DNA from: a virus
Lineage: Duplodnaviria; Caudoviricetes
Reading direction: 5' to 3' (one strand)
IMG/VR virus record: IMGVR_UViG_3300035696_000044
Location: 39-64,038 of that record
Length of the DNA stretch: 64,000 bases
The notes beneath the pieces were generated by a model. It saw only the letters and a program-made list of their open reading frames with translations. It had not been told where the DNA came from and did no database searches. The position numbers were made by a program, and so were the translations under genes. This document shows positions 6,264-61,786 of this stretch, piece by piece (within the stretch, counting starts at the first letter, position 1; the number at the start of each line of letters is the position of its first letter).

Positions 6264-6273
6264 GGAGGGGGCG

Positions 6274-8527: not shown

Positions 8528-8752
8528 GTGCCGGTACAAAGCACAGCAGCCACGGTTGTAGAAAACTCCTCGATAAGCTCGGTGGGTGCAACAGGCATCA
8601 TCAACGCCACCTTCCCGGTGGGGGCGGTATACTTGGTGTCGAGTAACACCAACCCCGGCACTCTGCTTGGTGCTGGCTCCTGGTCGGCTAACGGTACGCT
8701 TCTTACAACCGGCACCGCCACCACCCTCTACGTGTTCATAAGGACGGCATAA
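8528..8752 (+). CDS. Small structural protein (baseplate gp10-like motif)
   Basis: FPVGAVYLVSSNTNPGTLLGAGSW resembles YPVGSIY...NP..L.G.GTW. Confidence 0.5.
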   Translation: MPVQSTAATVVENSSISSVGATGIINATFPVGAVYLVSSNTNPGTLLGAGSWSANGTLLTTGTATTLYVFIRTA

Positions 8753-38874: not shown

Positions 38875-39175
38875 TAGTCAACTCCTTCATCAACCCTTCC
38901 AAGAGCAACAGATAGTTTATCGTGTCTGTTATCTTCTCCGACCACCTGTCCATGTTTGTTTCCCCAGCCTCTGCAAAGTCGTAGATGGCAACCACGTGCT
39001 TGACCATGATACCGAGTAGCGCATCGGGTGGCCACTGCCCGGTCAGCTTTGCAGCCTTCTTGAAGTTGGATAGTCGGTCGTCCCCTCGTGCATACTCACC
39101 ACCTTTAGCCGACAGGGTGTCCTTGCACACCTGAAGCCTTGCTGCAACAATGTCGTCGAACTCTTCCCGTTTCAT
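38861..39175 (-). CDS. Hypothetical protein (nucleotide-modification-associated domain-like)
   Basis: KGGEYA..DRLSNF...KH...KITDTINY pattern. Confidence 0.5.
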   Translation of the reverse strand: MKREEFDDIVAARLQVCKDTLSAKGGEYARGDDRLSNFKKAAKLTGQWPPDALLGIMVKHVVAIYDFAEAGETNMDRWSEKITDTINYLLLLEGLMKELTNGGA

Positions 39176-41964
39176 GCTGCCTCCTCCATTATCATCTTCT
39201 CCATAGTTCCCCAATTTCTACCCACCTTGGCATCAACGAGCACCGGCACACTAAGCTCCACGGCGCTCGCCATAACGTCTATGATTAGCGGCACCATCCA
39301 CCCCACCGCCTCCTTTGATACCTCAAATAGCAGTGAGTCGTGGACTTGCACAAGGGCGTTCACCACCACCCCTGCCTTCCTCCACGTCATCACCAGATCC
39401 CGTAGCCGCCTCCCCATGGCACGCTTAATAATCCCTTGCGCCCCCGACTGGATGGGGAAGTTCTGCGCTTCCCTCAACGCCGCCTCCCTCAGTCCTTTGT
39501 TCTGACTCCTAGCGTTCGGTATATACCGCCGTCTGCCAAACATATCCAACACATAGCCAAACCGCTTAGCATGATCGTGGGTGGCAGTCATGAACGCCTT
39601 CACACCGGGGAAGGTAGCAAAGTACCTCCCTATAAAGTCCTCACACCGGTTCTCCGTCCATTGTATCCCCATCGTGGCAAGGGCAGCTTGAAGACCCCCA
39701 GCGCTCATTCCATAAGGTATCCCAAAGTTGACCGTCTTAGATGCACGCCTCTGTACGCTGTCGACTTGGTCCAAGGGTATCCCATACGCCGTCGCCGCTG
39801 TCTGGGTGTGCAGGTCGACACCGTCGCGGAAGATCTGGACCATACGCTGGTCCTGGCTGCCGTGGGCGAGGACACGGAGTTCTATCTGGGAGTAGTCGCA
39901 TTCAACAAGGATGCATCCATCGGAGGCTATGAAGCCATCCCGGAGCTTCTTCGCCTCCTCGCCCCGTACTGGTTGGTTCTGGAGGTTGGGGTTGGACGAA
40001 CTGTTGTGCAGGGCCACCTCATTACCGATAAAACAATGTGTATCCTCGACCTCCAAGTCCCACAACTGCATCTCCGGTCCAGGCTCTACTGATATTACAT
40101 AGTGGTTGCTTGGTCCCACCTGGGTGAGGAGCATACGGTGGAGTCTACGCCGGTAGACCTGTAGGGTACTGGCCTTCAGGGGTTCTCCCTTCCTGCTCAC
40201 CCCAGTGCGCAGTGCCTCGGTGTACTCATCCACCGAGTACCTGTGCTCCTTTGCGTGGTCGCTCTGGCTTTTAAGCCATGCTAGATTGCTGGGAGTGTTG
40301 TTAGACTTTCTCCGATCCTTGTGGTGGACAAGGGCCTTCCCCAGGTGTCTACCATCACTGTAAACCTGAGAATAAACAAACCTGTGCTCCTTGTTCCTAC
40401 CACCACTTCCTGTTCCATTACCCCTGTTCTTGCTATGGGGGAAGATACAATAATATCCCTGACCATGTTGAGTGCGTTTAACCATGCACATCAACCTGTC
40501 CCCAGGCTTTAGCCTCCCTGCCGGAATCCAACCACCACTGAGCAGGCGGACAAGGTGGTCGGGGGATAGCTTGAGCTGGAGTTCCGGTCCATCCTTTGCA
40601 GCGTATCGGAGTACTACTGTCTTGGCGGTCTTGGTTGGTCCCACCCACTTCACTTTCTTGACGCATAGTTCTCGTTCCCAGTCAAAGGAGTAGACCCAGT
40701 CTCCAGCCTGTACTTCTCGAAGGGGGACCCCATCCGGGTACTTATCCATATCCCTGGGCATTTCAATGAGGGTGTCAGGGTCTACGCAAAGCCTGCCAGT
40801 GGCAGTACGGGTAGTCTTGAACGTAGTATGGACTCGGTCGTGACTGTCAGCCAACACCGGGATGGCATCGGCGTAGGTGCCCTTGAGCTTGATGTAGCTA
40901 CGATAGTCTTGGATTCCCTTTATTACCGCCTTCTGGTCCTCGCTGATCCTTCCCCCCTCCACCAACGTGGCCAGCGTTGCATTGTCCGTAGTCTCCAGCC
41001 CCTTCGGATGCCGTATCCCCATCCTCGTATACAACACCTCCGCCACCTGCTGCCAGGAGTTGGGATTGAAGTCGGACAGGTCGGTGCCGGATGCACGAAT
41101 AGTGGCGAGGATACCCTGGCGACATTCCTCCGCCTTGTCTGCCAAGTACACCGAGAGTTCGGCGAAGTGGGCGCGGTCAACCCTTACCCCTACCTTCATC
41201 ATCTCCGCTATTATTGGCATCGCCTCCATGTCGGCCCAAAACACATCGGCCAACCCGTCTGCTTCGATCCTCGGCCACAGTGCATGGTACAGGCGCAACG
41301 TGGCATCGGCATCTCGGGCGGCGTAGTGGATGGCGGCGGAGTGGTCGACATCGCTGAGGTCCCCGATGGGCATAGGACCCAGTACTGTTTCCACCATCCC
41401 CCGTCCGGCATCGAGGTCGATATTTCGCCACCGGTCATACGGGTCGGCACCTTTCTCGATGCTATCCTTAACGATCCTCCACACACGTTTGTATATCGCC
41501 TGTGGCTGCTTCGTCCTCCTCTTGTCCTTCTCCCATACCTCTATGGGGGTGATCTTTGGCCACGACCTCGACAGTACCTCGCACAGGTAAGCGAGGGCTT
41601 TGCGTTTGGTTGCGTCACCGACGGTATCCTCGTACGACTCCATGGTCATGCCACAGTTCCGATACGCCAATGGCTTCAAACCTTGTGGTTCCGTCGCCAG
41701 CAGGTACGCCATGACCATCGTGTCCGCCACCCTGCTCGGCCTCACCCCCATCCTGTCCAACACCGAGGCATCGTAGAGCCAGTTGTGGGCGACGGTGAGG
41801 ACGGATGGATCGGACAGGCGGTGGTGGATGGTGGAGAGTTGGTCGTGCTGGTTGGCCATCACCACCCGTGCCTTCCCCGGCTCCACCGACCACGACATGC
41901 ACCATGGACCCCCGGCTACCCACTCGGTATCCACACTGACGATGGTTGCCTCTGCTAGCTCCAA
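39172..41964 (-). CDS. DNA polymerase family A (3'-5' exonuclease + polymerase) with intein
   Basis: DTE, HNWLYD, YAARDA; TATGRL|SSSNPNLQN; DYSQIELR; SKTVNFGIPYG; VHDS. Confidence 0.95.
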   Translation of the reverse strand: MELAEATIVSVDTEWVAGGPWCMSWSVEPGKARVVMANQHDQLSTIHHRLSDPSVLTVAHNWLYDASVLDRMGVRPSRVADTMVMAYLLATEPQGLKPLAYRNCGMTMESYEDTVGDATKRKALAYLCEVLSRSWPKITPIEVWEKDKRRTKQPQAIYKRVWRIVKDSIEKGADPYDRWRNIDLDAGRGMVETVLGPMPIGDLSDVDHSAAIHYAARDADATLRLYHALWPRIEADGLADVFWADMEAMPIIAEMMKVGVRVDRAHFAELSVYLADKAEECRQGILATIRASGTDLSDFNPNSWQQVAEVLYTRMGIRHPKGLETTDNATLATLVEGGRISEDQKAVIKGIQDYRSYIKLKGTYADAIPVLADSHDRVHTTFKTTRTATGRLCVDPDTLIEMPRDMDKYPDGVPLREVQAGDWVYSFDWERELCVKKVKWVGPTKTAKTVVLRYAAKDGPELQLKLSPDHLVRLLSGGWIPAGRLKPGDRLMCMVKRTQHGQGYYCIFPHSKNRGNGTGSGGRNKEHRFVYSQVYSDGRHLGKALVHHKDRRKSNNTPSNLAWLKSQSDHAKEHRYSVDEYTEALRTGVSRKGEPLKASTLQVYRRRLHRMLLTQVGPSNHYVISVEPGPEMQLWDLEVEDTHCFIGNEVALHNSSSNPNLQNQPVRGEEAKKLRDGFIASDGCILVECDYSQIELRVLAHGSQDQRMVQIFRDGVDLHTQTAATAYGIPLDQVDSVQRRASKTVNFGIPYGMSAGGLQAALATMGIQWTENRCEDFIGRYFATFPGVKAFMTATHDHAKRFGYVLDMFGRRRYIPNARSQNKGLREAALREAQNFPIQSGAQGIIKRAMGRRLRDLVMTWRKAGVVVNALVQVHDSLLFEVSKEAVGWMVPLIIDVMASAVELSVPVLVDAKVGRNWGTMEKMIMEEAA
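40003..40788 (-). mobile_element. Intein (262 aa) with HNH endonuclease domain
   Basis: Starts CVDPDT, ends WDLEVEDTHCFIGNEVALHN followed by Ser; internal EHRFV...VHHKDRRKSNN..SNL. Confidence 0.92.
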
Positions 41965-51209: not shown

Positions 51210-52351
51210 CAGGAATCCTCCTCGATGCCAGCAAGGTCCAAGTGGTCGAGGATCTCACGCAGGGCGATCATGCGGGTGTACTTGGGAAACGCCGTACGCA
51301 GACCGTCGATGCGCGGGGCGAGGTAGGTGATGAGCCAGTCCTCGGTCGGGGACAGGGGGATGGTTTCGGAGTCGGGGGCGGGCTGGGTCGCCGCTGCCAC
51401 CGCTGCTGCTTCCTTGGCCTTGGTCAGCTGCCTTTCCAGCTCCCGGTTTTTGCTAATGAGAGCATTGAGCCGTGTAGTGATCTCCAAGAGATAGGATCTG
51501 TCACATAGTATTCTGCTCTGGTCAGCCGGGGCTGCTACCATTGGAGACGATGGGCGAGGAGGCGATACTGATGGTTCCTCCACCACTACCACCTCGGCAT
51601 CCTCCTCCACCACCACCCCACCTTGCCCGCTAAGCGGCATCGGGACGCCCTTGTCCACCGGGTAGGTAAATACATCGTCCTTACCCCCGTTCGTCGATCC
51701 TGGGCCTTCCTGGGGGGCCTTCCTCCTACCTACCACATTCTCCTCTCTGCTCTTTGTATCATTCAGGCGTTCGAGGTTGGTGACAAGGAGCCGGGCAAGG
51801 CTCTCATCGCCGTCGTCCAGCCGGGTGAACATTACCAACCGGCCATCGCGTTCCTTCCTCACCACCCCTCCGTTGCTCAACATGTTGGAAACGATACTGG
51901 CGAGGCCGGATTTGCTCTTACCGGGCAGCCCCTTGGCCATATCGGACAAGACGAAGCACCGGTCCAGCTTGCGAACGATGTTGAACATGCGAAGGAGCTT
52001 GCCCTTGGTCCTGGGCGGGAGGTAGGACCACTTGGACACCAGGTCCTCTCCCCCTTTGGACAAGAGGTATTCAAAGGTTTGGTCGTCGGTGTAGCGCATA
52101 ACGGGTCCTCCTTTCAGTTTGCACATAGGGTCGTACTTGCTACGTGCAGGTGGGTGGTAAAGGGTATGGTGGGAGGAGGAGGAGGCGAAGAAGTCGGCAG
52201 CGAGGGCGGAGAGGCCCGATAGCTCCTCCGGTGTGCCGACGATGTCTTCCAAGTCCTTTCCCCCCACGGTGATACCGCGAAGGTCGCGGTCATGGCGGTT
52301 GATGGGGTGGTCGAGGGGATTGTCGGTAGGTCGATTGATAGGGTGGTTCAT
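51209..52351 (-). CDS. Protein with winged-HTH and coiled coil
   Basis: FVLSDMAKGLPGKSKSGLASIVSNMLSNGGVVRK resembles a wHTH. Confidence 0.55.
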   Translation of the reverse strand: MNHPINRPTDNPLDHPINRHDRDLRGITVGGKDLEDIVGTPEELSGLSALAADFFASSSSHHTLYHPPARSKYDPMCKLKGGPVMRYTDDQTFEYLLSKGGEDLVSKWSYLPPRTKGKLLRMFNIVRKLDRCFVLSDMAKGLPGKSKSGLASIVSNMLSNGGVVRKERDGRLVMFTRLDDGDESLARLLVTNLERLNDTKSREENVVGRRKAPQEGPGSTNGGKDDVFTYPVDKGVPMPLSGQGGVVVEEDAEVVVVEEPSVSPPRPSSPMVAAPADQSRILCDRSYLLEITTRLNALISKNRELERQLTKAKEAAAVAAATQPAPDSETIPLSPTEDWLITYLAPRIDGLRTAFPKYTRMIALREILDHLDLAGIEEDS

Positions 52352-53154
52352 ACTTCTTCACCTCCTTCGTTGTCGGTGGGGGGCATGGCGGGGGCTGGGC
52401 CAGTACGCACCCACCCAACTTCTGTGCGATACTCCCATCCTGAGTCATTAGGTAATGCGCCCCCGGTGCTGGTGGAGGAACCGGTGTAGTTGAATACGTT
52501 AGGGGAAAGCCCGTCTTGTTGGGTTGGGTAGCGACGGACATTGATGAAACCCCCAGTAGTAGCCGGTTGTGGTGGCATTACCCATCGGGTGCCGTCCTCG
52601 ACAAATTGCACATCCCCAGCGCCTAGAATACATGGGGGATCTGGTGGGGAAGGGCGTGGTGGGGAAGGGCGTGGTGGGGAAGGGCGTGGTGGGGAAGGGC
52701 GTGGTGGTTCCACCTCCAACTCCTCCGGTGCCTCCTCCAACTCCTCCACACTGCCCACTCTGGCGTTGAGGATGCGCTCGAATACATCCCTACTAGCCCT
52801 CGGCGTACTCCCCCCACGCGGGCGTCGGGGCATCGGAGGTGTCAGCAGCTCCTCGTACCTCTCCTCCGTTACCTCCTCCACCTCAGCCAATGCTTTTTTT
52901 TCTCGCTCCTTAACGAGCCCTTCCGGCATCCCCTCGCCTTTTAGATATTCCATTGGTGTTGCCCGGAATGCCTTCCTCCATGCCTCTTCGGCAGCGGCGG
53001 GGGTGATGTGGCGCATGGGGTCGGGGCCGTTGGTAATCAGATCCGCCGCCAACCTCAATGCCCTCACCAGCTCCACCACGGCCCACTCGGTGCTACGCTT
53101 AACTTCCATCATTCTCTTTTTTTCTTTTCTCACGATACGTCCTCCCTCCAGCAC
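52348..53154 (-). CDS. Hypothetical protein with (PPRPS)n repeat
   Basis: Coupled ORF containing a tandem repeat. Confidence 0.55.
   Translation of the reverse strand: MLEGGRIVRKEKKRMMEVKRSTEWAVVELVRALRLAADLITNGPDPMRHITPAAAEEAWRKAFRATPMEYLKGEGMPEGLVKEREKKALAEVEEVTEERYEELLTPPMPRRPRGGSTPRASRDVFERILNARVGSVEELEEAPEELEVEPPRPSPPRPSPPRPSPPRPSPPDPPCILGAGDVQFVEDGTRWVMPPQPATTGGFINVRRYPTQQDGLSPNVFNYTGSSTSTGGALPNDSGWEYRTEVGWVRTGPAPAMPPTDNEGGEEV
52643..52702. repeat. 4 x 15-bp tandem repeat GGTGGGGAAGGGCGT
   Basis: Exact copies; encode PPRPS units on the minus strand. Confidence 0.9.
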
Positions 53155-53577: not shown

Positions 53578-53805
53578 TTACTGTGGGTCTAGTTGGTCCA
53601 GCTCCCTCTAACCTATGGGCTTGAACGACCAGGAGCCGAAGAAAGCGACATCGTGGTGGCTGGTGCCGAGGTAGCAGAGGTTGCGAACGTGGATATGGCG
53701 CAGGGCGTTGTGCACCCACGCCTCATGCCGATCCTTCGGGTCTCTCCTGAACGATCCAGTGACGAACTTTCTTTGTAGCTGTATGGGCTGGGGGGTGGTT
53801 GTCAC
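53578..53805 (-). pseudogene. RELD-family member with in-frame TAG in the motif
   Basis: VTTTPQPIQLQRK...SFKPIG*RELDQLDPQ*; TAG at 53608-53610. Confidence 0.75.
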
Positions 53806-54017
53806 TCTGCACCCCCCTCCAGCTCGTCCAACTCCCTCTCCCCCACCGGCTTGGACCAAGCGAAGGGGAGGTTGTGGGGGATGGAGTTCTCCCAGACCAT
53901 GTTGCGATACTTGCATCTCAGGCCGAAGTCGGAGCCATGGGGGGAGGAGTCCCAATGATTGGGGTATAGTGAATAGTTGCGGCTGATCAACCTTCGACGT
54001 ATCTGGACCACGCTCAT
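53802..54017 (-). CDS. RELD-family small protein
   Basis: VVQIRRRLI...KPVGERELDELE. Confidence 0.8.
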   Translation of the reverse strand: MSVVQIRRRLISRNYSLYPNHWDSSPHGSDFGLRCKYRNMVWENSIPHNLPFAWSKPVGERELDELEGGAE

Positions 54018-54232
54018 GATTGATCCCTCCCTTCCTCCAATGTGTCCAACTCCCTCTCCCCCACCGGTTTGGTGAAATAGTGGGAGGGGGCCTTTCCAGC
54101 ATTATCCCAAACCATATTCCGATACATGCACGTGTAGCCGTACTCTTCCCCGTAATATGGAGCCAGATCCCAGTCGGTGAGTCTACGTTTTTGCGGGGCG
54201 CTAATGGAGCTGCGCTTGACTTGGAGTATCAT
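54014..54232 (-). CDS. RELD-family small protein
   Basis: ILQVKRSSI...KPVGERELDTLE. Confidence 0.8.
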   Translation of the reverse strand: MILQVKRSSISAPQKRRLTDWDLAPYYGEEYGYTCMYRNMVWDNAGKAPSHYFTKPVGERELDTLEEGRDQS

Positions 54233-54480
54233 GGCCGGTCCCCCTCCAGCTCGTCCAACTCCCTCTCCCCTATCCTCTTTGCCCCGGAGCAGGTGCAGGA
54301 ATGGGGTGGGGCAGACGCCGGGTACAGGCTACGGGTTCTGTTAGACTTCCCCCCACCACTTATACATGAGACTCCCAAGGCGACGTGGACCAGGAACTTG
54401 CCTTCCGAACCCCACCGTGCTATCTTCCTCCTTGGGATTTGGAGCAGTGTCCCAGGGGGGAATTTAAGACTTGTTGCCAT
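54229..54480 (-). CDS. RELD-family small protein
   Basis: FPPGTLLQIPRRKI...KRIGERELDELE. Confidence 0.8.
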   Translation of the reverse strand: MATSLKFPPGTLLQIPRRKIARWGSEGKFLVHVALGVSCISGGGKSNRTRSLYPASAPPHSCTCSGAKRIGERELDELEGDRP

Positions 54481-54697
54481 AGGCCGTCTCCTTCCTGCAT
54501 GAGAGTAAGTGGGTGTCGAGTTCACGCTCGCCTACCAGCTTATGCCCGGAGTAGAGGTCGGCATCAACGCCCCTGAATACCTCCATGGCGTAGAGGACGG
54601 GAGTGGTGTCACCACCCAAATAGGTTCTACCCATGGTCATGCACTGCGACCCGAAGTTATCAACCAAACAGGTTCTACTGTATTGGGTCAGATTCAT
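54464..54697 (-). CDS. RELD-family small protein
   Basis: LTQYSRTCL...KLVGERELDTH. Confidence 0.8.
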   Translation of the reverse strand: MNLTQYSRTCLVDNFGSQCMTMGRTYLGGDTTPVLYAMEVFRGVDADLYSGHKLVGERELDTHLLSCRKETAYGNKS

Positions 54698-54894
54698 GAC
54701 TGCTCACTCCTCTCCTCCAGTTTATCCAACTCCCTCTCCCCCACCAGCTTGCCGGTGAAGCGAGAGGGGGAGTACCACACCACCATAGCGACAACAACAG
54801 CCCTACCGTCTACATCATGCCCTATGGCGGTCATCGACTCCCCCTTGAAGTACTCTACCAACACCTTTAGGCTGTATTGAGCTACCCATGCCAT
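54694..54894 (-). CDS. RELD-family small protein
   Basis: VAQYSLKVL...KLVGERELDKLE. Confidence 0.8.
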   Translation of the reverse strand: MAWVAQYSLKVLVEYFKGESMTAIGHDVDGRAVVVAMVVWYSPSRFTGKLVGERELDKLEERSEQS

Positions 54895-54915
54895 CCTAGC
54901 ACCCAACCTCGGACG

Positions 54916-56331
54916 TTACCGCATCCGCCGCCGCGCGTCCTCTTCCTTTGCCTTCCTCTCCAACTCCTCCACCTCCACCTCCGCCGTCAAGCACACCTCC
55001 ATGGCGTTGGATATAACATCCTTGTCGTAGGTGGAACCCCATCCATACTCCCACGTCTTCTCTTTTCGGTCAAACCGCACGGGAAGACCGAACTGGTCGA
55101 ACACCTGACCGCTGGTCTTGCCGTACGCCACCGGCACGATATCCGCATCCTGGTAGTACCAGAATGCCCCGTTCTTGCACCACTCAAGTAGGCGATTGGT
55201 TTCTTTGCAGAAATGCTGCTTGGTTTCGTGGTCGTATGTTTGCTGGATGCCCCGGCCTATGCCGTGGTACTTGAATGTAGGTGGGAGCTTTTGGGAATAG
55301 GTAAGGGGTACCAGCACCCCCCTCTGGCCGTAGACGACAAGGGATTTGTTGCCACCGCCATTGCCGCCAACAGCGTTGGACTCCCCTCCGGTTGCATCGG
55401 CATTCGACTTACCGTTCTCCTTATCCTTGTCCTTATACTTATCCCCCGTGTACACCCACCCCCTGGTATCGTAGTACATCCACCCCTCCAGGCTTCCGTC
55501 TCCGCCTTGGAGTCCGTATCCGTAGTCGTCCAATTCGTCGTGGCCCCTGCCCCTACTACATCCCCCAGAAGGCCCTAAGGAGGCAGACGAAGGGTTTGCC
55601 TCGCCATTGTCACCTCCATTGGCCCTTGTCCAGTTGGCTGGAAAGTGGGTAGCGACGGTTCTGGTGACGGGAAGGGTGTAGCTCTTGTTGCTCCACCACA
55701 CGTCCATGTCCTTGTAGTATTCACCGAAGGTATATACGTTCTCCTCGGCATCGAGTATGGCGAACTTGCTGGTGCCTACAAGGTGTTGGATCAGCCTCGT
55801 CGCCGACTTGCCGCCTATGTTCTTGGACACTATCGGCTCAGCCAGCACCTTCAGTATAAACTCCTGGGTGTCGGACAGCGGTGGTTCCTTGTCCTTGGGG
55901 TCGTCGTCTATCCACTTTAGCAGCTTCCGGTCGTAGTGGCCGCTGGAGTAGCCGGAGCTATACCGGGTTGACCGTCCATAGCCAACGAGAACTCCGTTAT
56001 GCACCACCCCCATCCGGTGCTCCCATTCCGCCGCACGCAGTTGGTTGACATCGCGTGTGACAGGGAACGGATGCGCTGCGGTATAGTCTTTGGCTCCATG
56101 GGTGGCGTAGCGGAAGTGGGTGATGATCGCCTTCGCTATCGGTATCGCCGACACGTACTCCCAGAACTCATCGAAGTTGGCAAAGAGCTTCCGTCCATGG
56201 ACCACTGGACCTTCCTTCCCCTCTCCTACCGCCATCACGCCCATGGCATCTTTGTTGATGCGGTAGCCTTCCTCAAGGTACTTCCTCTCTGGTAGCGCCA
56301 CCCCCTTGGGCTTAATCATTATCAGACACAT
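54916..56331 (-). CDS. Class II (Ntn) glutamine amidotransferase with long C-terminal extension
   Basis: Met-Cys start, HFRYATHG, AHPF, VHNG, SDT. Confidence 0.9.
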   Translation of the reverse strand: MCLIMIKPKGVALPERKYLEEGYRINKDAMGVMAVGEGKEGPVVHGRKLFANFDEFWEYVSAIPIAKAIITHFRYATHGAKDYTAAHPFPVTRDVNQLRAAEWEHRMGVVHNGVLVGYGRSTRYSSGYSSGHYDRKLLKWIDDDPKDKEPPLSDTQEFILKVLAEPIVSKNIGGKSATRLIQHLVGTSKFAILDAEENVYTFGEYYKDMDVWWSNKSYTLPVTRTVATHFPANWTRANGGDNGEANPSSASLGPSGGCSRGRGHDELDDYGYGLQGGDGSLEGWMYYDTRGWVYTGDKYKDKDKENGKSNADATGGESNAVGGNGGGNKSLVVYGQRGVLVPLTYSQKLPPTFKYHGIGRGIQQTYDHETKQHFCKETNRLLEWCKNGAFWYYQDADIVPVAYGKTSGQVFDQFGLPVRFDRKEKTWEYGWGSTYDKDVISNAMEVCLTAEVEVEELERKAKEEDARRRMR

Positions 56332-56393
56332 ATGTGGTACCCCCTTTCTTTGTCAGTAGTCACCACCACTGCCACCATCACCCCCACCCCTGC

Positions 56394-57992
56394 CTACTCC
56401 TCCTCCATATCCTCACCCTTCTTCTTGCTGATCTTCGGGTGGGGCAGGTACTCCATGCAGTTAGTCGCCGTGAGGTAGCTGGTCAGCATCTTGTCACCGG
56501 TGGACTTGGCGTACGTTGCAAACTCCCCCCACAACGCCTCCGGCTTACCCGTCACCAACCTGCTAATCGACACTGCATTCAGTGTCCAGTTGCAAAGGTG
56601 GTGTACGACGGCAAGGTAGCCGTAGATACTCGCCACCTTCAATGTCCCCTTGAACACGCGGAACTCTATGGTGCTGGTGTGGGCAAGGTTAAGCGCACAA
56701 TACTTCTCCTTCACTCCTCCTTGCTCTATCGCCTTGTAGAACAGCTTCTCCTGGTTCTGCGATATCGTGTCCAGCCGCTTCTTCATCACTGCCTTGTCCT
56801 CGTGGTTGGCATACCTTATCGCCTCTTCCAGGTTCATCCTCTCCGTCTCCCCAACCCGCCCCAAGTAGTTCTTGAAGTCGAAGTTGGCGTAGTGGCTGAT
56901 GCGTCTGGCCAAGGTCAGCACCACCGGCTCGAACTTCACCATCGCCACCAGCAGCTTGGACCGCGCCAGTTGGCTAAGGTCGTCGTTGCTACGGTGGATG
57001 TGGATGCCGCAGCTGCCCTTGGGCTGGGATTGGGTAGGGGTATCCCAGCTCCTCCCCCCTTCCGTCCTGACCGCCTTGGTCATCGCCTTCAACGCTTCCG
57101 CCGACTCCTGCCAGCTTTTGTACGTGCGGGGATGGAAGCAGAACTCTATCCCATTCTCCAGGCTCCCGTCACGCTTGGCGTAGAAGAACTTGCCCCCCTC
57201 GCTGAGGGGCCAGATTTTGCCCACGTGGAGGTTGCGGTCGCCTGGGTACTTATCCGTTTCAAGCTCCATGCCGTACATCGGCGTAGAGCATAGATCCAAC
57301 ACCTCACCCTTGCCGATATGGAACACAGGCCGTGGACGATAGTTGTACTCCCTCACCTCTGCTATATTCGACCGGTAACAATCCGGGCAGACCAACCCAC
57401 CGTTGCCGTTGTTCCTCATCTGCTCCCGGTGGAAATAAGCACTGCACAGGCTGCATTGCCTCATGTGCTGCGTACACCACACACACACCGTCTGATGCCC
57501 CATTGCCACCAACGTCGAAGTCTGGTGGTAGACCCTGCACACCGGACAGCGCGAGTACAGCGCCTTGCATGTTCTGCACACCCTCCCCCCATTCGCTATC
57601 TGCAAGCTGTTGGGGTCGTAGTGGCGTTTATGGCACTCCGCGCACTCGAACACTCTGCTACGGTTGCAATCGTTGCAGACGCTTACCTCTACCCCGTTCA
57701 TCCACACCCTGTGCTTCACCGTGGACGACATGTTCCCACACGCTGCGCACCGCTTGCGATTCTTGCAGTCGGGGCACTTGTGGAAGCCGTCTTTGGTCTT
57801 GGTGAACCCTACCTCCAACGGTAGCACCTTGTGGCAGCAAGAGCAGATGTAGATGTCGGGGAGGCAATCCGGGCACAGGTGGTACGGTGTGCCTGGGAAT
57901 ATCTCCCAATCCTCGCTGTAGTTGCCACAACAGAAGCAGCGCTTGGTTCTGGGTGTGATGGTTGGCATTTCGGTTGTTATACGTTCCGGCAT
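56394..57992 (-). CDS. Amidoligase (COOH-NH2 ligase, glutamine synthetase-like) with N-terminal zinc ribbons
   Basis: 12 CxxC pairs, then YGMELE, KRDGSL..GIEF..HP, CGIHIH, KYCALN..TIEFRVFKGTL. Confidence 0.85.
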   Translation of the reverse strand: MPERITTEMPTITPRTKRCFCCGNYSEDWEIFPGTPYHLCPDCLPDIYICSCCHKVLPLEVGFTKTKDGFHKCPDCKNRKRCAACGNMSSTVKHRVWMNGVEVSVCNDCNRSRVFECAECHKRHYDPNSLQIANGGRVCRTCKALYSRCPVCRVYHQTSTLVAMGHQTVCVWCTQHMRQCSLCSAYFHREQMRNNGNGGLVCPDCYRSNIAEVREYNYRPRPVFHIGKGEVLDLCSTPMYGMELETDKYPGDRNLHVGKIWPLSEGGKFFYAKRDGSLENGIEFCFHPRTYKSWQESAEALKAMTKAVRTEGGRSWDTPTQSQPKGSCGIHIHRSNDDLSQLARSKLLVAMVKFEPVVLTLARRISHYANFDFKNYLGRVGETERMNLEEAIRYANHEDKAVMKKRLDTISQNQEKLFYKAIEQGGVKEKYCALNLAHTSTIEFRVFKGTLKVASIYGYLAVVHHLCNWTLNAVSISRLVTGKPEALWGEFATYAKSTGDKMLTSYLTATNCMEYLPHPKISKKKGEDMEEE

Positions 57993-58010
57993 GACTCGTC
58001 CTCCTTCCCT

Positions 58011-58346
58011 CTAAACATCGTCGTAGTAGTATCGGTTGAAGGTTATGGATTCAATATCTACAAGGGTTCCTTCCAGCTTAAGGTACTCGTCATCTCCAGT
58101 CAGATGGACTGTGTCATCATCCTCTGCCATGATGCCGGAAACTTGGAAGGTTAGCCCCATACCACCATCGTGTTTCCTGGCATCGGCTATAAGGTCGCTC
58201 AACCGTACTGCCGCTTGGGCTATGCGTGCAGCCCGAACTCTGTTCCATTCCTTGCCGTCTTTTTCAAACGTGTCCAAGTCGGAAAGAGCCTGCTCAAGGG
58301 ACCGTATCTTCACCATAGCTATTTCTAGTTTCTCCCTTGCTCTCAT
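58011..58346 (-). CDS. Hypothetical protein (lacks the RELD motif)
   Basis: RBS and operon packing. Confidence 0.55.
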   Translation of the reverse strand: MRAREKLEIAMVKIRSLEQALSDLDTFEKDGKEWNRVRAARIAQAAVRLSDLIADARKHDGGMGLTFQVSGIMAEDDDTVHLTGDDEYLKLEGTLVDIESITFNRYYYDDV

Positions 58347-58375
58347 CGTTGTGTCCTCCTTCCTGTTAGTGTTGG

Positions 58376-58636
58376 TTATATGTTAGACCTTTTCCTGGTT
58401 AGTTTCGTCCTCGGTGTATCCAGCTCCCTCTGACCTACCGGCTTCACCGTCTCCATCGTCTCCGCATCGCACCCCCAGCTTTCCCAGTTATCGTCCCCAT
58501 TCCTCATCACATGCAGGTAGGCAGGGTAGTGCTCGTTCACCTCACCATCGTGGGAGTAGTCCGCGCAGAAGGCTTGCCAAGGGTCGGGTCGGCACATGGA
58601 TACGAGTTGCTGTCTGGACAGTTGGTATACGGTCAT
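58376..58636 (-). CDS. RELD-family small protein
   Basis: VYQLSRQQL...KPVGQRELDT. Confidence 0.8.
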   Translation of the reverse strand: MTVYQLSRQQLVSMCRPDPWQAFCADYSHDGEVNEHYPAYLHVMRNGDDNWESWGCDAETMETVKPVGQRELDTPRTKLTRKRSNI

Positions 58637-58887
58637 TCCTCCACCTCCACCCCCTCTAGTGTATCCAACTCCCTGGCACCGATGGGTTTTGCCCTACGGG
58701 GTGGAACAGCACCATTGACACTATCATAATTATCCATGATTACTATATTCACCCTCATCCTATGGTATTTCCTATCCCGTTGGTCAACGGCCTCTCTACT
58801 CATCTGACCCCTGTCTTTCAGCTGCCATAACCAGTTGTTTCGGGCCAAGAAGTCTCTTGTGTATTGTGTAATCTCAGCCATCGTCAT
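58633..58887 (-). CDS. RELD-family small protein
   Basis: ITQYTRDFL...KPIGARELDTLE. Confidence 0.8.
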   Translation of the reverse strand: MTMAEITQYTRDFLARNNWLWQLKDRGQMSREAVDQRDRKYHRMRVNIVIMDNYDSVNGAVPPRRAKPIGARELDTLEGVEVEE

Positions 58888-59137
58888 CCTCCCCTATCAG
58901 CCTGTCCACCTCTCGTTGCCCGATCTGCTTGAAGTCGAATAATGTGCCACCGGATATCTGGATAGGGGAAGTAGGAGGGTCGGCGGACTGGTCCACCCAC
59001 ACCCCTCGGTACTGCTCCCACCCCTCTCCCGGCTCGGTAGTCACCTTGGCAACCCAGAACTGGGCTTCTGTCTCGGAGATCCTTCTCCTGCTTACCTTAA
59101 CCAGCTCTCCTATGTAAAACCCGCTAGTGTTAGCCAT
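58874..59137 (-). CDS. RELD-family small protein
   Basis: FYIGELVKVSRRRI...KQIGQREVDRL. Confidence 0.8.
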   Translation of the reverse strand: MANTSGFYIGELVKVSRRRISETEAQFWVAKVTTEPGEGWEQYRGVWVDQSADPPTSPIQISGGTLFDFKQIGQREVDRLIGEDDDG

Positions 59138-59336
59138 CAGCGTTCACCTCCCGCTCCTTGTCAACCGTGTCCAGCTCCCTCTCCCCCACCGGCTTCCTCA
59201 AGTCGCCGGGCACCCCCATCACGACGTTGGTGCAATGCTGCGCCCAATATGAGCCAAACATCCCATCGCAGTACGCCCTCAACGTCCGGCGTGAGTATTG
59301 GTATGGCATCCCGGTGTTGTCATTCGGCATCGGCAC
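59130..59336 (-). CDS. RELD-family small protein
   Basis: PYQYSRRTL...KPVGERELDTV. Confidence 0.8.
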   Translation of the reverse strand: MPMPNDNTGMPYQYSRRTLRAYCDGMFGSYWAQHCTNVVMGVPGDLRKPVGERELDTVDKEREVNADG

Positions 59337-59538
59337 CCTCCAGTCTGTCCAACTCCCTCTCCCCCACCAGCTTCAGGTTAGAGTCCCACCATTGGGTATT
59401 GGTAGCGTACAGGCTGACCCACACCCGGCCCTGACCACGATGGGCACCATTGGCAATGAGGTGCATCCTTGTCCTCTGTACTACGTCGGTAGACCGGAAG
59501 TCGGTATCCGGTGGATTGAGCCTAGGTTGCCTATTCAT
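59320..59538 (-). CDS. RELD-family small protein
   Basis: VVQRTRMHL...KLVGERELDRLE. Confidence 0.8.
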   Translation of the reverse strand: MNRQPRLNPPDTDFRSTDVVQRTRMHLIANGAHRGQGRVWVSLYATNTQWWDSNLKLVGERELDRLEGADAE

Positions 59539-59728
59539 CCCCCTCCTCCAATCTATCCACCTCTCGTTCCCCTATTTTCTTCCACAGGGGGCGGTCGAGA
59601 TCACGGATGGGGTAGTGGAAGCAGTATGTGGCATATTGGTGCTGCACCCAGGTGTACCCAGACCCTCTTGTATCCATCCTCAGCTCTATGCGTGATAGCT
59701 GTATCGGTATCCCCTTATTGGCCGTCAT
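59531..59728 (-). CDS. RELD-family small protein
   Basis: PIQLSRIEL...KKIGEREVDRLE. Confidence 0.8.
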   Translation of the reverse strand: MTANKGIPIQLSRIELRMDTRGSGYTWVQHQYATYCFHYPIRDLDRPLWKKIGEREVDRLEEGDE

Positions 59729-59957
59729 GTCGCGCCTCCAGGTGGTCCAACTCCCTGGCACCAACGATCTTGGGTTTGGTGCCCACCATGGGGTTCATCC
59801 CATCGTCAACGGCCACAACATTCACCCACAGCACATGGCAGTTGCACTCTCTATGCTCCCTCTCGTCTGCGCTCAGTGCAGACTCCGCCTTCAGCTGCCA
59901 CCGAGCATGCCAACTGGACATCAACTGTGCTCTGCTGTATTGGATAAGGTCAGGCAT
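59715..59957 (-). CDS. RELD-family small protein
   Basis: LIQYSRAQL...KIVGARELDHLE. Confidence 0.8.
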   Translation of the reverse strand: MPDLIQYSRAQLMSSWHARWQLKAESALSADEREHRECNCHVLWVNVVAVDDGMNPMVGTKPKIVGARELDHLEARHDGQ

Positions 59958-59989
59958 TGGTTGGCTCCTTTTCTTCAAGGGTATCCAGC

Positions 59990-60223
59990 TCACCTCGCCA
60001 CCTCCAGATGGTCAATCTCCCTCTCCCCCACCACCTTCAGCCCCAGCTTCACAAAGTCCTTACTAGCTCCCCAGCTGAGCCTATTACCGCCTTCGTTGGG
60101 CATTACAGCCAGGTATGTAGGGTAGCCCCTTGAAGAGTCATGGATGCATGTATCGGCATAGAAGTTCTTGCTGTATCTCCTCAGTATGCGCCTCCTCGAT
60201 ACCTGCAATATGGGTTGGATCAT
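59990..60223 (-). CDS. RELD-family small protein
   Basis: ILQVSRRRI...KVVGEREIDHLE. Confidence 0.8.
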   Translation of the reverse strand: MIQPILQVSRRRILRRYSKNFYADTCIHDSSRGYPTYLAVMPNEGGNRLSWGASKDFVKLGLKVVGEREIDHLEVAR

Positions 60224-60455
60224 TGCTCCCTCCCTAGTTTGTCAACCTCTCTCTTGCCTATGAGCTTGAGGTTGAAGGGGAATAAGGCGTCGGTAGTACC
60301 ATTAGACCTTTTTACATTGTGGGTCTTGAGTGGGGGCAATAGTCGGCTACCTTCACGGGGAGTACGTTCACCCCACTGTCGCGGAACCCACCCTCCAGCG
60401 TCTTGCACCGCTTCCTCGTCACTTGGACAATATCCCCTTCTTTCCACTCCACCAT
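60220..60455 (-). pseudogene. RELD-family member with a -1 frame break
   Basis: N-terminus MVEWKEGDIVQVTRKRC (stops at 60312-60314); KLIGKREVDKL lies in the -1 frame; C5 run at 60332-60336. Confidence 0.6.
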
Positions 60456-60603
60456 CACCCAACCTCCTGTGTTGTATAGCCGCTCCTTAGCTTCATCCCA
60501 TACCAGAAAGGACAGGATCAGTGATTAGCCAACCCTGTCCCTCCGTGGTCTAGACTGAATCTAGGTTGTTAGGTCAACATTCCAACAACGTTCCCCTCAC
60601 CCG

Positions 60604-60951
60604 CTACTCTGCTTTCAGCCGGTCAAAGCTCTCGTTCTCCCAGCTCTCCAGCCCGCGATCCTTGGCGAACTTGAGGTGAAGCAGGTTGACCTGCATGGCC
60701 ATGGTCTCCTTCGGCCCCAGATCACGGCTGGTGTAGTCGGTACCGGCCTGAACGGTGCTCAGCTGGTCCATGTTGGCTTTCTTCAGCCAGGTAGCGGTCC
60801 CGCCGATGACGCTCTTGCCGTCGATGAGCGCTGCGTTGGCGCACTCTATGTTGCCCGCGCTCTGAATGGTCGGCGTACCGATGTAGGTCTTGCCGCCAAG
60901 GGTAACTACCTTCACCGCCGCTGCCAGTTCGCTAATCGCTGCAAAGTCCAT
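60604..60951 (-). CDS. Hypothetical protein
   Basis: AGGAGG RBS; coding-like composition. Confidence 0.6.
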   Translation of the reverse strand: MDFAAISELAAAVKVVTLGGKTYIGTPTIQSAGNIECANAALIDGKSVIGGTATWLKKANMDQLSTVQAGTDYTSRDLGPKETMAMQVNLLHLKFAKDRGLESWENESFDRLKAE

Positions 60952-61102
60952 AATGTCCTCCTTCTGCGATGTGGTGTTAGTGATTGGGTCCGGGTTCGGC
61001 CTATCCTCACCCTGCCTCTGGTTGTCTGTTTGGTCCTTCCGTGCCCTACGCACCATCCTATACCCTCCACCATGTTAAAGGTTGGTTGATTGGTCCCCTT
61101 GC

Positions 61103-61786
61103 CTACGCCCCCTTTGCCACCTCCGCCGTCTCCTTGTCGTGCGGAATACCTGTGAGTGAATCCATATCGTGCAGTGCTACCGCTACTGCTTCGAGCAGTA
61201 TGTTTCTTACCGCGTGAACCGCTGTACTCAGCTCGTCGGCCATTGGTGCTTCCGGCCTGGTCTTGAGCTGGACTACTGCATCGTTGACGTTCTGCAGCAT
61301 GGTGTTGAGCATCTCGGTAGTGGTCTTGGCCGCGTGGTATTCCCTAAAGCTGCCATTGCGCACAGCAAGAAAGATACCACTACCTACCCTCCTCAGCACA
61401 TACGGATCTGATATGAAGTAGCACCATGCCTCGACCTTGCTCCCGTCGGCCAGCATGACCTCGATGGGCTTCCTCGCATACAGGTTGTCCTTCCTCCCTG
61501 GCTTGTAGTTCTCGATGGCATCCACCCTGGTCAGCACACTCTTGGGGGCTGTATACACCTCCCCCACCGCTCTGCACCATCCCGGCTCATCCACCAGCAT
61601 GGGGTAGCCGCCCCCGTACATCGGGTATTGCTCCACGGTCTTAGCTGGACCCAAGAACTCTACATCCTTGTGCCTCAGTACTTCCCAATACCCCATGCCG
61701 CTCATCAGCGTACCATATACGAACAACGTGTGCTTGGGGTCAGGCTCAACGACCGCTGCCACTATGTCCTTTTTTTTCCTCGCCAT
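61103..61786 (-). CDS. Gamma-glutamylcyclotransferase (GGCT/AIG2-like) with C-terminal helical extension
   Basis: LFVYGTLMSG, YPMLV, GEVY, LYAR..IEV, AWCY. Confidence 0.85.
   Translation of the reverse strand: MARKKKDIVAAVVEPDPKHTLFVYGTLMSGMGYWEVLRHKDVEFLGPAKTVEQYPMYGGGYPMLVDEPGWCRAVGEVYTAPKSVLTRVDAIENYKPGRKDNLYARKPIEVMLADGSKVEAWCYFISDPYVLRRVGSGIFLAVRNGSFREYHAAKTTTEMLNTMLQNVNDAVVQLKTRPEAPMADELSTAVHAVRNILLEAVAVALHDMDSLTGIPHDKETAEVAKGA

Follow-up and report, generated by a model that had tools for sequence, protein, structure and literature searches.

The phage DNA analyzed here carries two arrays of small genes whose products have mostly dissimilar cores and share, near their C-termini, a motif (K-x-[VI]-G-x-R-E-[LVI]-D) that is selected as protein, while the DNA encoding it is partly homogenized and acts as a recombination site. 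The gene family is a single-lineage orphan. Its arrays lie on either side of a zinc-ribbon Amidoligase_2 protein and a class-II-GATase-like Ntn protein, and our preferred, though tentative, reading is that the conserved tail may be a shared handle to which this enzyme module docks or which it modifies.

The window, by which we mean the whole 64,000-nucleotide stretch that was analyzed, encodes all 15 family members within 6.9 kb. They are arranged on the minus strand in two translationally coupled arrays, array A (nine ORFs, 60458-58376) and array B (six ORFs, 54894-53578). The ORFs are 65-92 aa in length, each has the motif near its end, and neighboring members mostly overlap, either as ATGA or GTGA or by 8-17 nt. 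Where a member corresponds to a database protein, the identifier is given in parentheses.

A1, 60220..60458, minus strand: broken, first in array A; the N-terminal part is an ORF at 60312-60458 (48 aa) that ends in TAA and has the SH3-like start W-K-E-G-D-I-V-Q-V
A1 tail, 60220-60311, -1 frame: K-L-I-G-K-R-E-V-D; the family HMM matches this tail only (17.6 bits)
A2, 59990..60223, minus strand: 77 aa, intact; ATG overlaps the A1 stop (ATGA); core like that of A9 (P0006)
A3, 59715..59993, minus strand: 80 aa from ATG 59957 (public gene call) or 92 aa from GTG 59993, which has a GTGA overlap and GGAGG 9 nt upstream; core like that of A8
A4, 59531..59728, minus strand: 65 aa, intact (P0008)
A5, 59320..59538, minus strand: 72 aa, intact (P0015)
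A6, 59130..59330, minus strand: 66 aa, intact; V-D after the motif in place of L-E
A7, 58874..59137, minus strand: 87 aa, intact; SH3-like start F-Y-I-G-E-L-V-K-V (P0003)
A8, 58633..58887, minus strand: 82-84 aa, intact; core like that of A3 (P0004)
A9, 58376..58636, minus strand: 86 aa, last in array A; basic tail without L-E; core like that of A2 (P0001)
B1, 54694..54894, minus strand: 66 aa, first in array B (P0009)
B2, 54464..54697, minus strand: 77 aa, without L-E; most divergent motif codons, GGC GAG CGT GAA CTC GAC
B3, 54229..54480, minus strand: 83 aa; SH3-like start F-P-P-G-T-L-L-Q-I (P0007)
B4, 54014..54232, minus strand: 72 aa; core 52% identical to that of B5 over 25 residues
B5, 53802..54017, minus strand: 71 aa (P0016)
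B6, 53578..53805, minus strand: last in array B, truncated; GTG start at 53805; TAG at 53608-53610 in place of the x of G-x-R

When the window was scanned with a degenerate DNA pattern for G-x-R-E-h-D, 16 matches were found on the minus strand and none on the plus strand, and a reversed control pattern had no match on either strand. Fifteen of the 16 matches are the array members and the other, at 38754, is a chance occurrence of GMSELD. Two members are broken, A1 by a frameshift and B6 by the TAG within its motif, behind which a remnant (R-E-L-D-Q-L) stays in frame to the TAA at 53578-53580; single recent mutations explain both copies. A preliminary description of this DNA had proposed a 15-member array of diversified paralogs with a constant C-terminal motif. 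The nature of the family, the 15 motif copies and the ORF layout are as it stated, with the amendment that only 13 of the 15 members are intact.

The K, G, R, E and D of the motif are invariant in 13 of 13 intact members, and the hydrophobic positions exchange V/I and L/V/I. The preliminary description had extended the tag by two positions, to K-x-[VI]-G-x-R-E-[LVI]-D-x-L; the part up to the D stands, and the L-E part is largely the ribosome-binding site of the next gene. In several members the L-E-[GE] that follows the motif is encoded by CTGGAGG, which places GGAGG 10-15 nt before the next start, and it is absent where that start is displaced (A6, A7, A9, B2 and B6). L-E-[GE] often doubles as the Shine-Dalgarno site of the next gene, and its constraint is probably in part at the nucleotide level. 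The very last residues of the members vary (E, S, P, G, Q, R, I). At the other end of the proteins is a weaker motif, h-h-Q-h-[ST]-R, with Q7 and R10 at least 90% conserved, and between the two motifs significant core similarity is confined to the pairs A2 and A9, A3 and A8, and B4 and B5; a weaker N-terminal Q...R-like motif and mostly unalignable cores had both been noted at the outset. Since outside these three pairs the cores are unrelated, it is the termini that hold most of the conservation, which is what one expects of a common interaction motif and not of a common fold core; no part of the presumed fold is nearly as conserved as the tail. As to that fold, three members (A1, A7 and B3) have an SH3-like N-terminal strand motif. 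AlphaFold models of members are of low confidence (pLDDT 61.5 and 52.9), the first having the order E-H-E-E-E-H-E, i.e., five strands and a short helix preceding the last, and fold searches with them gave Z of at most 2.7 and E of at least 0.2. The members are probably small, beta-rich proteins.

Codon entropy for the five invariant residues is zero at position 2, non-zero at position 1 for Arg only, and 0.35-1.34 bits at position 3. At K, G, R, E and D every change is silent, with Arg codons (AGG, AGA, CGA, CGT) that switch at two codon positions, and pN/pS is 0.16 over eight conserved motif codons. Such exclusively synonymous variation means that selection acts on the motif as protein, a conclusion that the preliminary description had drawn from synonymous variation and that the codon statistics bear out: conservation is not confined to the DNA. 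Still, tail codons are biased, AGG being used in 11 of 15 cases vs. 31% genome usage and TTG in 7 of 11 Leu codons vs. 19%, and eight motif copies have a nearly identical purine-rich 18-mer in common despite their unrelated cores, which points also to DNA-level homogenization or recombination. The motif DNA forms direct repeats of ~45-50 nt spaced 180-270 bp apart, and a variant that joins the body of B4 to the tail of B5 occurs in two independent public assemblies; this hybrid and the homogenized tail codons support recombination at the tail DNA. It could be argued that the motif is purely a DNA- or RNA-level repeat, serving regulation, recombination or translational coupling and specifying a peptide without function. 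The repeats with their regular distances would suit such an element, as would the 18-mers with codon choices unlike the genome average, the persistence of the motif behind the B6 stop and in the shifted frame of A1, and the Shine-Dalgarno site in the L-E-G part. However, 15 of 15 copies are on one strand and, except for the B6 remnant and the A1 tail, in the ORF frame; substitutions at the invariant residues preserve the amino acid even from AGG to CGA or CGT; hydrophobic residues replace one another at the hydrophobic positions; and the lesions in the broken copies are of the recent, single-mutation kind. An explanation in terms of nucleic acid alone, already disfavored, is therefore highly improbable.

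The family has a very narrow distribution. A profile search of 1.84 billion representative proteins recovered only the proteins of this phage and one repeat-driven chance match. There was no consistent Pfam-A match for the 13 intact members (one member matched YneP, at E 0.012), no PHROGs match for family members, and nothing at E<=10 in a profile search of the PDB. DNA-pattern scans and protein searches likewise gave no sign of the family outside this phage, which is present in metagenomes from peat. The initial impression that this is not a described system has thus survived searches in which the family HMM matched no characterized family.

The array genes are located in a minus-strand arm with replication genes, and the structural genes are far off on the opposite strand. 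The amidoligase/GATase-like pair sits between arrays A and B, and the neighboring genes are as follows.

61103..61786, minus strand: GGACT / AIG2-like gamma-glutamyl cyclotransferase, upstream of array A (PF06094, 4.6e-22, 79.3 bits vs. a cut-off of 22.8); the gene probably starts at an internal ATG
60604-61056: unknown protein, 150 aa, which separates the GGACT gene from array A
58011..58346, minus strand: protein of unknown family, 111 aa, between array A and the amidoligase, with no Pfam or PHROG match
56394..57992, minus strand: zinc-ribbon Amidoligase_2 protein, 532 aa, with ~12 CxxC motifs at residues 19-205 and an Amidoligase_2 domain
54916..56331, minus strand: class-II-GATase-like Ntn protein, 471 aa, with an N-terminal domain that starts M-C-L-I and a Gly-rich acidic C-terminal extension

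The 532-aa protein scores 20.2 bits against Pfam PF12224, for which the cut-off is 22, and matches phrog_16683 (6e-20) and also phrog_2443, annotated "amidoligase." We have treated it as a divergent Amidoligase_2 member despite the sub-cut-off score, since at least 20 relatives (E 1e-53 to 1e-8) carry PF12224 and its alignment keeps invariant E243, E245, D275, H331, H333 and R364 as well as an E-F-R-x-F-x-G-T-L block. The 471-aa protein has no Pfam match of its own. It is 30-37% identical to the amidoligase partners in three other phage loci (L253, L279 and L223) and shares with these three homologues invariant C2, R74, T77-H78-G79, N112-G113 and D154; two of them have sub-threshold matches, to GATase_6 (24 bits vs. 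27) and GATase_4 (16.9 vs. 23). Together with GGACT, the pair brings three families that all make or break gamma-glutamyl-type amide bonds into one strand-consistent block.

The enzyme pair is widespread, with at least 424 (amidoligase) and at least 399 (GATase-like) IMG/VR loci. In 2009, Iyer, Abhiman, Burroughs and Aravind reportedly described, in Mol Biosyst, phage neighborhoods of Amidoligase_2, class-II-GATase-like and AIG2/GGACT genes. Two later papers cite the Amidoligase_2/GATase-like/AIG2-GGACT phage neighborhoods of that study (PMC10580990, PMC11318856), and cases of the Amidoligase_2/GATase-like pair in the literature include LUZ24-like, OM43, phiEco32 and Marvin phages. The predictions made for the pair include peptide or cell-wall modification and, on the basis of neighborhoods, DNA hypermodification. 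Amidoligase/GATase pairs have been linked to DNA hypermodification clusters (PMC8989533), a connection that would mean a non-protein substrate for the enzymes and so would speak against a handle. Neither a substrate nor a partner family for the pair was described in the literature that we searched. The window contains the same three enzyme families as the known neighborhoods; unlike in those, the enzymes here and in two other phages, L224 and L253, are embedded in arrays whose 15-20 small proteins have a C-terminal tail in common.

In L253, a 109-kb phage, an unrelated family of small proteins, with tails of the K-P-[YF]-G-I-V-x-F-C-K-K-Y-Y type, has 20 of 20 members within a 14.6-kb stretch that also holds two amidoligases, an M-C-L-I GATase-like gene and an ATP-grasp gene. 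In the 140-kb phage L224, at least 17 ORFs end in [IL]-K-I-T-[VI]-x-R-K and flank two amidoligase/GATase-like pairs on both sides, and 16 of 20 matches to the tail pattern are in the 19-kb enzyme-bearing block. In a third lineage, L279/L238, two amidoligases and a GATase-like gene lie interspersed among seven to eight SH3-like paralogs. The L224 and L253 tails vary synonymously as well, have no conserved acidic partner residue, and in one L224 case the tail is attached to an unrelated Pfam domain, DUF7296 (3.8e-27), from which we conclude that the tail is portable in that phage. We rejected the idea that the window family is the same family as those in L253 and L224: hhalign gave probabilities of 0.05 and 0.14, respectively, i.e., no detectable homology, and the L253 and L224 families matched each other at 19% over the N-terminal G-D strand only. 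Similarly, the RELD HMM of the window family had no match in 80 amidoligase loci. What recurs among these three tail families is therefore an architecture and not a conserved partner motif. Such arrays were seen in only three independent lineages among ~150 amidoligase- or GATase-centered loci and were absent from L223, the closest amidoligase relative, which indicates that the enzymes do not need them. Among 114 random IMG/VR loci (1.05 Mb) there was no true array, and enrichment over random loci is weak (one-sided Fisher p ~0.03 for loci in the first sample, ~0.2 for lineages in both samples). None of the other array-bearing phages has GGACT.

We envision a lineage-specific, fast-diversifying family that would be expressed from two translationally coupled operons, each member consisting of an N-terminal strand motif, a member-specific core and a tail under purifying selection. 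The tail could be a common handle through which one partner recognizes all members, with the variable cores supplying different specificities or targets, and near-identical tail DNA would provide a recombination site at which cassettes are deleted, duplicated and shuffled. The likeliest partner would be the surrounding module, i.e., the zinc-ribbon Amidoligase_2 and class-II-GATase-like Ntn proteins, with GGACT nearby. Through the tail, the small proteins might be docked on the ligase as adaptors, or the tail itself might be what the ligase modifies; candidates for acceptor or donor side chains are its invariant Lys, Glu and Asp. We infer the handle role, the enzymes as partner and the chemistry alike. 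The suggestion in the preliminary description of one docking or modification tag remains the most economical reading, supported by analogy with the tail-tagged arrays beside homologous enzymes in unrelated phages.

The enzymes might instead be unrelated cargo of the same plastic early region, and the array genes a stand-alone accessory family of independent small effectors (for host take-over, anti-defense or similar) whose conserved ends either form the outermost structural elements, first and last, of a small beta-barrel or attach to a hub protein of the host. We regard this as quite possible, if somewhat doubtful: it accommodates the SH3/KOW-like starts of three members, the five strands and short helix before the last in a low-confidence AlphaFold model, the two broken members expected of dispensable arms-race genes, the lack of such an array at most amidoligase/GATase loci and the weak enrichment statistics. 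It does not readily account for arrays on both sides of the enzyme pair here, in L224 and in L253, for a tail so much more conserved than the presumed fold, or for the L224 tail on an unrelated domain. It may also be observed that large phages have plastic accessory regions which arrays and enzymes could simply share, a consideration that runs against a handle. A signal for capsid targeting or ejection, directing diverse small proteins into the virion for co-injection in T-even style, would suit the constant ends, variable cores and recombination at constant DNA that the window has in common with T4 internal-protein loci; with genes in the minus-strand replication arm, far from the structural module, no prohead protease seen adjoining the arrays, and a C-terminal tag internal to the tail instead of a cleavable N-terminal leader, it is very unlikely. 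No better are the prospects of RiPP- or graspetide-like precursors, in which the tail would be a motif for recognition or for cross-links (Lys-to-Glu/Asp side-chain amides) made by the ligase, with the GATase-like Ntn protein as a processing peptidase. Microviridin-type cores do have conserved Lys and Asp/Glu residues that are cross-linked, and here a span of nine residues holds the invariant K, E and D, an amide-bond ligase adjoins an Ntn-type hydrolase and the L253 array includes an ATP-grasp enzyme. Against this, members of 65-92 aa look like folded domains and not leader-plus-core peptides, the L224 and L253 tails lack the acidic partner residue, and no transporter or other RiPP hallmark was seen.

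Returning to the handle, it is conceivable, but rather unlikely, that a gamma-glutamyl-type (or related amide) modification directed at proteins exists in some phages, with the amidoligase as the writer, the GATase-like Ntn hydrolase (with GGACT in the window) as the eraser or processor, and the array tails as the recognition or acceptor sites. If so, this enzyme pair, an orphan since 2009, would gain its first candidate substrates or adaptors in the arrays of the window, L224 and L253. The pair is among the commoner unexplained enzyme modules in phage genomes, and three unrelated phages that embed it in 15-20-member tail-sharing arrays offer candidate partners or substrates. Should the link hold, it would represent a new phage protein-modification or adaptor logic; should it fail, there is still a clean single-lineage orphan family that diversifies by cassette shuffling at a dual-use stretch, with a protein motif and a ribosome-binding site in the same DNA.

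Among known systems, the arrays bear comparison with the T-even internal-protein loci, where Repoila et al. are said to have described in 1994, for T4, variable ORFs with nothing in common but a short terminal targeting peptide, their conserved ends being recombination sites. The likeness lies in the variable small ORFs with a short terminal peptide in common, in conserved DNA ends that promote cassette exchange and in an overall plastic, arms-race-like character; the differences are the C-terminal position of the window tag, the company of early and replication genes, and the amide-bond enzymes as neighbors. The T4 capsid targeting sequence is an N-terminal leader of ~10 aa that ends in L/I-x-E, is cleaved by the prohead protease and is encoded near the head genes. 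We rejected membership in this T4 type for the window family, given its C-terminal tag, its replication arm on the strand opposite the structural genes and the lack of an adjoining protease gene. Pupylation, in which a glutamine-synthetase-like carboxylate-amine ligase recognizes a small protein via its C-terminal region and forms a gamma-glutamyl amide that another enzyme reverses, is alike in outline, as its ligase acts on a small protein known by its C-terminal region. Pup, however, is a single disordered protein that ends in G-G-Q/E and whose gene lies next to that of a PafA/Dop-type ligase, whereas the window family comprises 15 members that are divergent, probably folded and different in their last residues. 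A Pup-like modifier was rejected on the grounds of these residues, the fifteen genes and the beta-rich (low-confidence) models, and Pfam and PDB profile searches detected no homology of the family to Pup or PafA. The F-box, BTB and ankyrin families that are expanded in poxviruses and giant viruses, where they are ubiquitin-ligase substrate receptors with a constant docking motif, belong to eukaryotic viruses and have no sequence or fold relation to the window family. The analogy with them is one of logic only: a constant short module on variable domains, tandem expansion and pseudogenized members.

The small proteins of the window are securely described as a single-lineage, fast-diversifying family with a selected C-terminal tail, encoded in coupled arrays, and it is equally secure that these arrays gain, lose and shuffle members through recombination at the tail DNA. 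The window is nearly the whole of a 64,038-bp IMG/VR virus record with an estimated completeness of 69%. Structural genes occupy the plus strand as far as about 37.5 kb, and a minus-strand arm encodes replication functions, including a DNA polymerase A with an intein, UDG, an ERCC4 nuclease, a YqaJ exonuclease and an AAA_25 helicase. The polymerase is a 930-aa family-A protein (39172-41964, minus strand) whose apparent intein with an HNH endonuclease, marked by Intein_splicing and HNH_3 matches at residues 463-654, lies between the exonuclease and polymerase parts. The array region is in the same arm, upstream of the replication genes. A degenerate DNA pattern for the G-x-R-E-h-D part of the tail has 16 matches on the minus strand of the window and none on the plus strand, and its reversed control matches nowhere in the window; 15 of the 16 are located near the 3' ends of small ORFs that follow one another on the minus strand and fall into two arrays.

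60458 down to 58376, minus strand: array A, motif-bearing small ORFs A1-A9
54894 down to 53578, minus strand: array B, motif-bearing small ORFs B1-B6

Overlaps of the ATGA/GTGA type or of 8-17 nt join the majority of adjacent ORFs, which makes it probable that translation is coupled along each array. Greedy longest-ORF gene calling was rejected for this GC-rich region because antisense frames exceed the real genes in length and yield wrong calls. A 302-codon Ser/Pro-rich open frame runs antisense across array A (59158-60066, plus strand), where codon analysis supports the minus strand as the coding strand. A profile of the 13 intact members found no extra copy in any frame of the window. Scans for sigma-70 promoters and intrinsic terminators returned fewer sites than shuffled sequence; a terminator/promoter boundary may lie in the 145 intergenic bp upstream of array A (60459-60603), which hold an inverted repeat (GGGACAGG ... 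CCTGTCC, then TTTCTGG) and a TTGACC hexamer, though the consensus scans make no call there. A 268-aa protein of no known family, encoded at 52348-53154 (minus strand), carries a P-R-P-S-P repeat run.

The preliminary description held that selection acts on the tail as protein, and the codons bear this out. The K, G, R, E and D of the tail are invariant in the 13 intact members, and across the 15 DNA copies their codons show zero variation at position 2, variation at position 1 in Arg only (AGG/AGA vs CGA/CGT) and free variation at position 3 (0.35-1.34 bits), so that these residues change synonymously only; the hydrophobic positions undergo V/I and L/V/I exchanges, and pN/pS over eight conserved tail codons is 0.16. 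Despite degenerate direct repeats of about 45-50 nt in the array region, the variation reads as that of a protein, and conservation of the motif at the DNA level only is contradicted. The tag as originally drawn needs to be shortened, since its K to D core is selected as protein and the trailing L-E-[GE] serves for the most part as a Shine-Dalgarno site: this stretch is encoded by CTGGAGG, containing GGAGG, which stands 10-15 nt ahead of the next start in A3, A4, A5, B3 and B5 and is missing in A6, A7, A9, B2 and B6, which have a displaced next start or none.

The same codons carry a trace of exchange between copies. The motif Arg is AGG in 11/15 (31% genome-wide), the motif Leu is TTG in 7/11 (19% genome-wide), and a nearly identical 18-mer is common to eight tail copies whose cores are unrelated, a combination which implies that gene conversion or recombination has acted at the tail DNA. 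Direct evidence of tail recombination comes from a protein that joins the body of B4 to the tail of B5, present in one JGI and one separate ENA assembly, the ENA copy having an additional Y-to-H change. Fifteen motif copies do lie on ORFs, as had been claimed, and two of the supposed members are broken. In A1 the 48-aa N-terminal ORF closes at TAA and the motif-bearing tail goes on in the -1 frame; in B6 a TAG falls precisely at the variable x of G-x-R, with R-E-L-D-Q-L remaining in frame behind it. Since table 11 leaves the long genes in the rest of the window uninterrupted, we take both defects for inactivating mutations of recent date or for errors of assembly, and not for recoding; the A1 site is covered by one run only, probably the source sample, and the contigs from the peat runs confirm neither the A1 frameshift nor the B6 TAG independently.

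Outside the tail, the weaker N-terminal motif noted earlier is real (h-h-Q-h-[ST]-R-x-x-h, with Q and R at least 90% conserved), and the middles indeed mostly fail to align, core similarity being significant in three pairs only (A2 with A9, A3 with A8, B4 with B5). The SH3/KOW-like starts proposed for three members are recognizable in A1, A7 and B3 as a G-[DE]-h-V type strand preceding the N-terminal motif. Support from structure for that fold did not follow: AlphaFold models from two runs are beta-rich and of low confidence (pLDDT 61.5 and 52.9), fold searches of PDB and BFVD with these models returned nothing above noise, and the ESM Atlas search gave sub-threshold leads only. From the models a small beta-barrel is plausible.

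The family is new, a single-lineage orphan. The initial impression that it belongs to no described system stands, in that its HMM matches nothing in Pfam, PHROGs or PDB sequences. When 1.84 billion cluster representatives were searched with the profile, only proteins of this phage itself and one chance match came up; P0012, a 1469-aa autotransporter-like protein with 8 matches, was rejected as a relative, its S-I-G-E-R-E-L-D being a chance occurrence within a repeat. Among 50,697 phage records Megablast showed no match to the array region, neither a back-translated peptide scan nor a 36-nt degenerate DNA pattern revealed another array in IMG/VR, and in metagenome and genome contigs all the matches listed were one per contig, which we read as chance. 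Near-identical DNA occurs in five peat-metagenome DNA runs, with contigs identical at low depth, and among RNA runs none is listed as carrying the stretch.

Three genes lie between arrays A and B, for proteins of 111 aa (no family assigned), 532 aa and 471 aa. In the 532-aa protein an Amidoligase_2 domain comes after about 12 CxxC motifs; the protein's Pfam score is just under the PF12224 cut-off, PF12224 is present in many of its relatives (E 1e-53 and weaker), and the amidoligase PHROGs match it as well. The 471-aa protein, with an M-C-L-I start, is 30-37% identical to genes following amidoligases in three other phages, and the class-II GATase hallmarks (Cys2, Arg, Asn-Gly and Asp) are invariant in its alignment. 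Upstream of array A, a 150-aa protein without family assignment is encoded together with an unambiguous GGACT/AIG2 cyclotransferase. Contigs of two peat runs (X1 and X2) depart from the window exactly at 56394, the junction of the amidoligase stop and the GATase-like gene, where their shared loose end begins AAATGGAGGCAAGGAA, which points to a variant in the population that has other sequence next to the amidoligase. Carboxylate-amine ligases of the amidoligase class form amide bonds, typically gamma-glutamyl, class-II GATase domains attack gamma-glutamyl amides with an N-terminal Cys, and GGACT enzymes release 5-oxoproline from gamma-glutamyl amines; on this established enzymology, all three neighbours would fit one chemistry. 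The enzyme module was reportedly predicted in 2009 by Iyer et al. In the literature the amidoligase/GATase pair is widespread and of unknown function, with peptide or cell-wall modification predicted. DNA hypermodification is another predicted role (PMC8989533).

Two detectors of within-locus paralog arrays were applied to 80 IMG/VR loci centred on zinc-ribbon amidoligase relatives, of at least 424. The window-family profile matched none of the 80, and the detectors found three further array lineages (L253, L224 and L279/L238). L253 is an AT-rich 109-kb phage with 20 small-protein members, all within 14.6 kb that also contain two amidoligases, an M-C-L-I GATase-like gene and an ATP-grasp gene; the proteins start M-K-F-K-x-G-D-x-V-K-V, have a conserved tail of the K-P-[YF]-G-I-V-x-F-C-K-K-Y-Y type and were found on their own contig only. 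A 111-aa ORF inside this array (6102-6437, M-K-I-L-F-L-D-D ...) looks by eye like a response-regulator receiver. L224, a 140-kb phage that is 92% complete, has at least 17 ORFs with a terminal [IL]-K-I-T-[VI]-x-R-K, flanking two amidoligase/GATase-like pairs on both sides, and of 20 tail matches, 16 fall in the 19 kb surrounding the enzymes. The same tail is borne by one member that is a DUF7296 domain, so that the tail is portable in this phage. Within the same array a 172-aa ORF (13132-13650) with an H-E-L-G-H-H (HExxH-like) metallopeptidase motif and no Pfam match terminates in the tail-like Q-T-I-T-I-K-K-R. L279/L238 has two amidoligases and a GATase-like gene with seven or eight SH3-like paralogs interspersed among them, and just upstream of the L279 amidoligase cluster a DUF7666 domain is fused to G-N-S-G-type pentapeptide repeats (8591-9505). 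Amidoligases of L253 (9536-11218, M-F-K-L-G-E-I-A-R-I-K) and L279 (12422-13948, F-A-E-G-M-E-V-V-V) have by eye an SH3-like strand before the zinc ribbons, which may be an array-type domain fused to the enzyme; no match of the L253 family profile falls in that start region. The L224 and L253 tails vary synonymously too, and the window, L224 and L253 tail families have no detectable homology to one another, the likeness of the arrays across phages being one of architecture. Clusters in L275, L294, L295, L298, L314, L321, L324, L344, L415, L428 and L490-L492 were rejected as low-complexity, antisense or DNA-repeat artefacts. In L490, from an AT-rich 133-kb phage, seven or eight minus-strand open frames between 599 and 9673 share an L-I-I-L-I-L-Y-H-I-I-type stretch, which is probably the translation, in a non-coding frame, of a dispersed DNA repeat.

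We consider it quite possible, if somewhat short of an even chance, that the tail is a common handle for the amidoligase/GATase-like/GGACT module embedded in the arrays; it would either dock variable adaptor proteins to the enzyme or be the site that the enzyme modifies. The main rival, which we rate as a serious though rather doubtful contender, sees the proteins as accessory effectors in their own right, with the enzymes merely sharing the same plastic region. Bearing on that choice, 114 random IMG/VR loci (1.05 Mb) gave no true array by either detector, and the enrichment of arrays around amidoligase loci is suggestive only: by our own arithmetic (one-sided Fisher) p is about 0.03 with loci counted in the first sample and about 0.2 with lineages counted over both samples, the second sample of 80 GATase-centred loci having added no array lineage. 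The closest amidoligase relative, L223, is without an array, and GGACT was not found in the other array-bearing phages. The positional argument is stronger, in that the window arrays were spotted without regard to enzymes and the pair lies inside an array block that makes up about 7-11% of the genome, or about 13-14% in L224 and L253. Opposite charge of the zinc-ribbon region and the tails (+7 vs -2.5 in the window, -22 vs +2.1 in L253) was dropped as an argument because L224 ribbons and tails both look basic by eye. Smaller probabilities go to a packaging signal, to RiPP-like precursors and to a purely nucleotide-level repeat, the last of which runs against the codon data.

That the arrays mark a new phage protein-modification system seems to us unlikely, at a level that still merits mention. 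The literature we searched reports no tail-tagged arrays around an amidoligase/GATase module in several unrelated phages; the enzyme module is the known part, and the small-protein family and its tail-tagged array arrangement around that module are the new part. For tandem small phage ORFs that have only a terminal tag in common, the internal-protein loci of the T-even phages offer a precedent.
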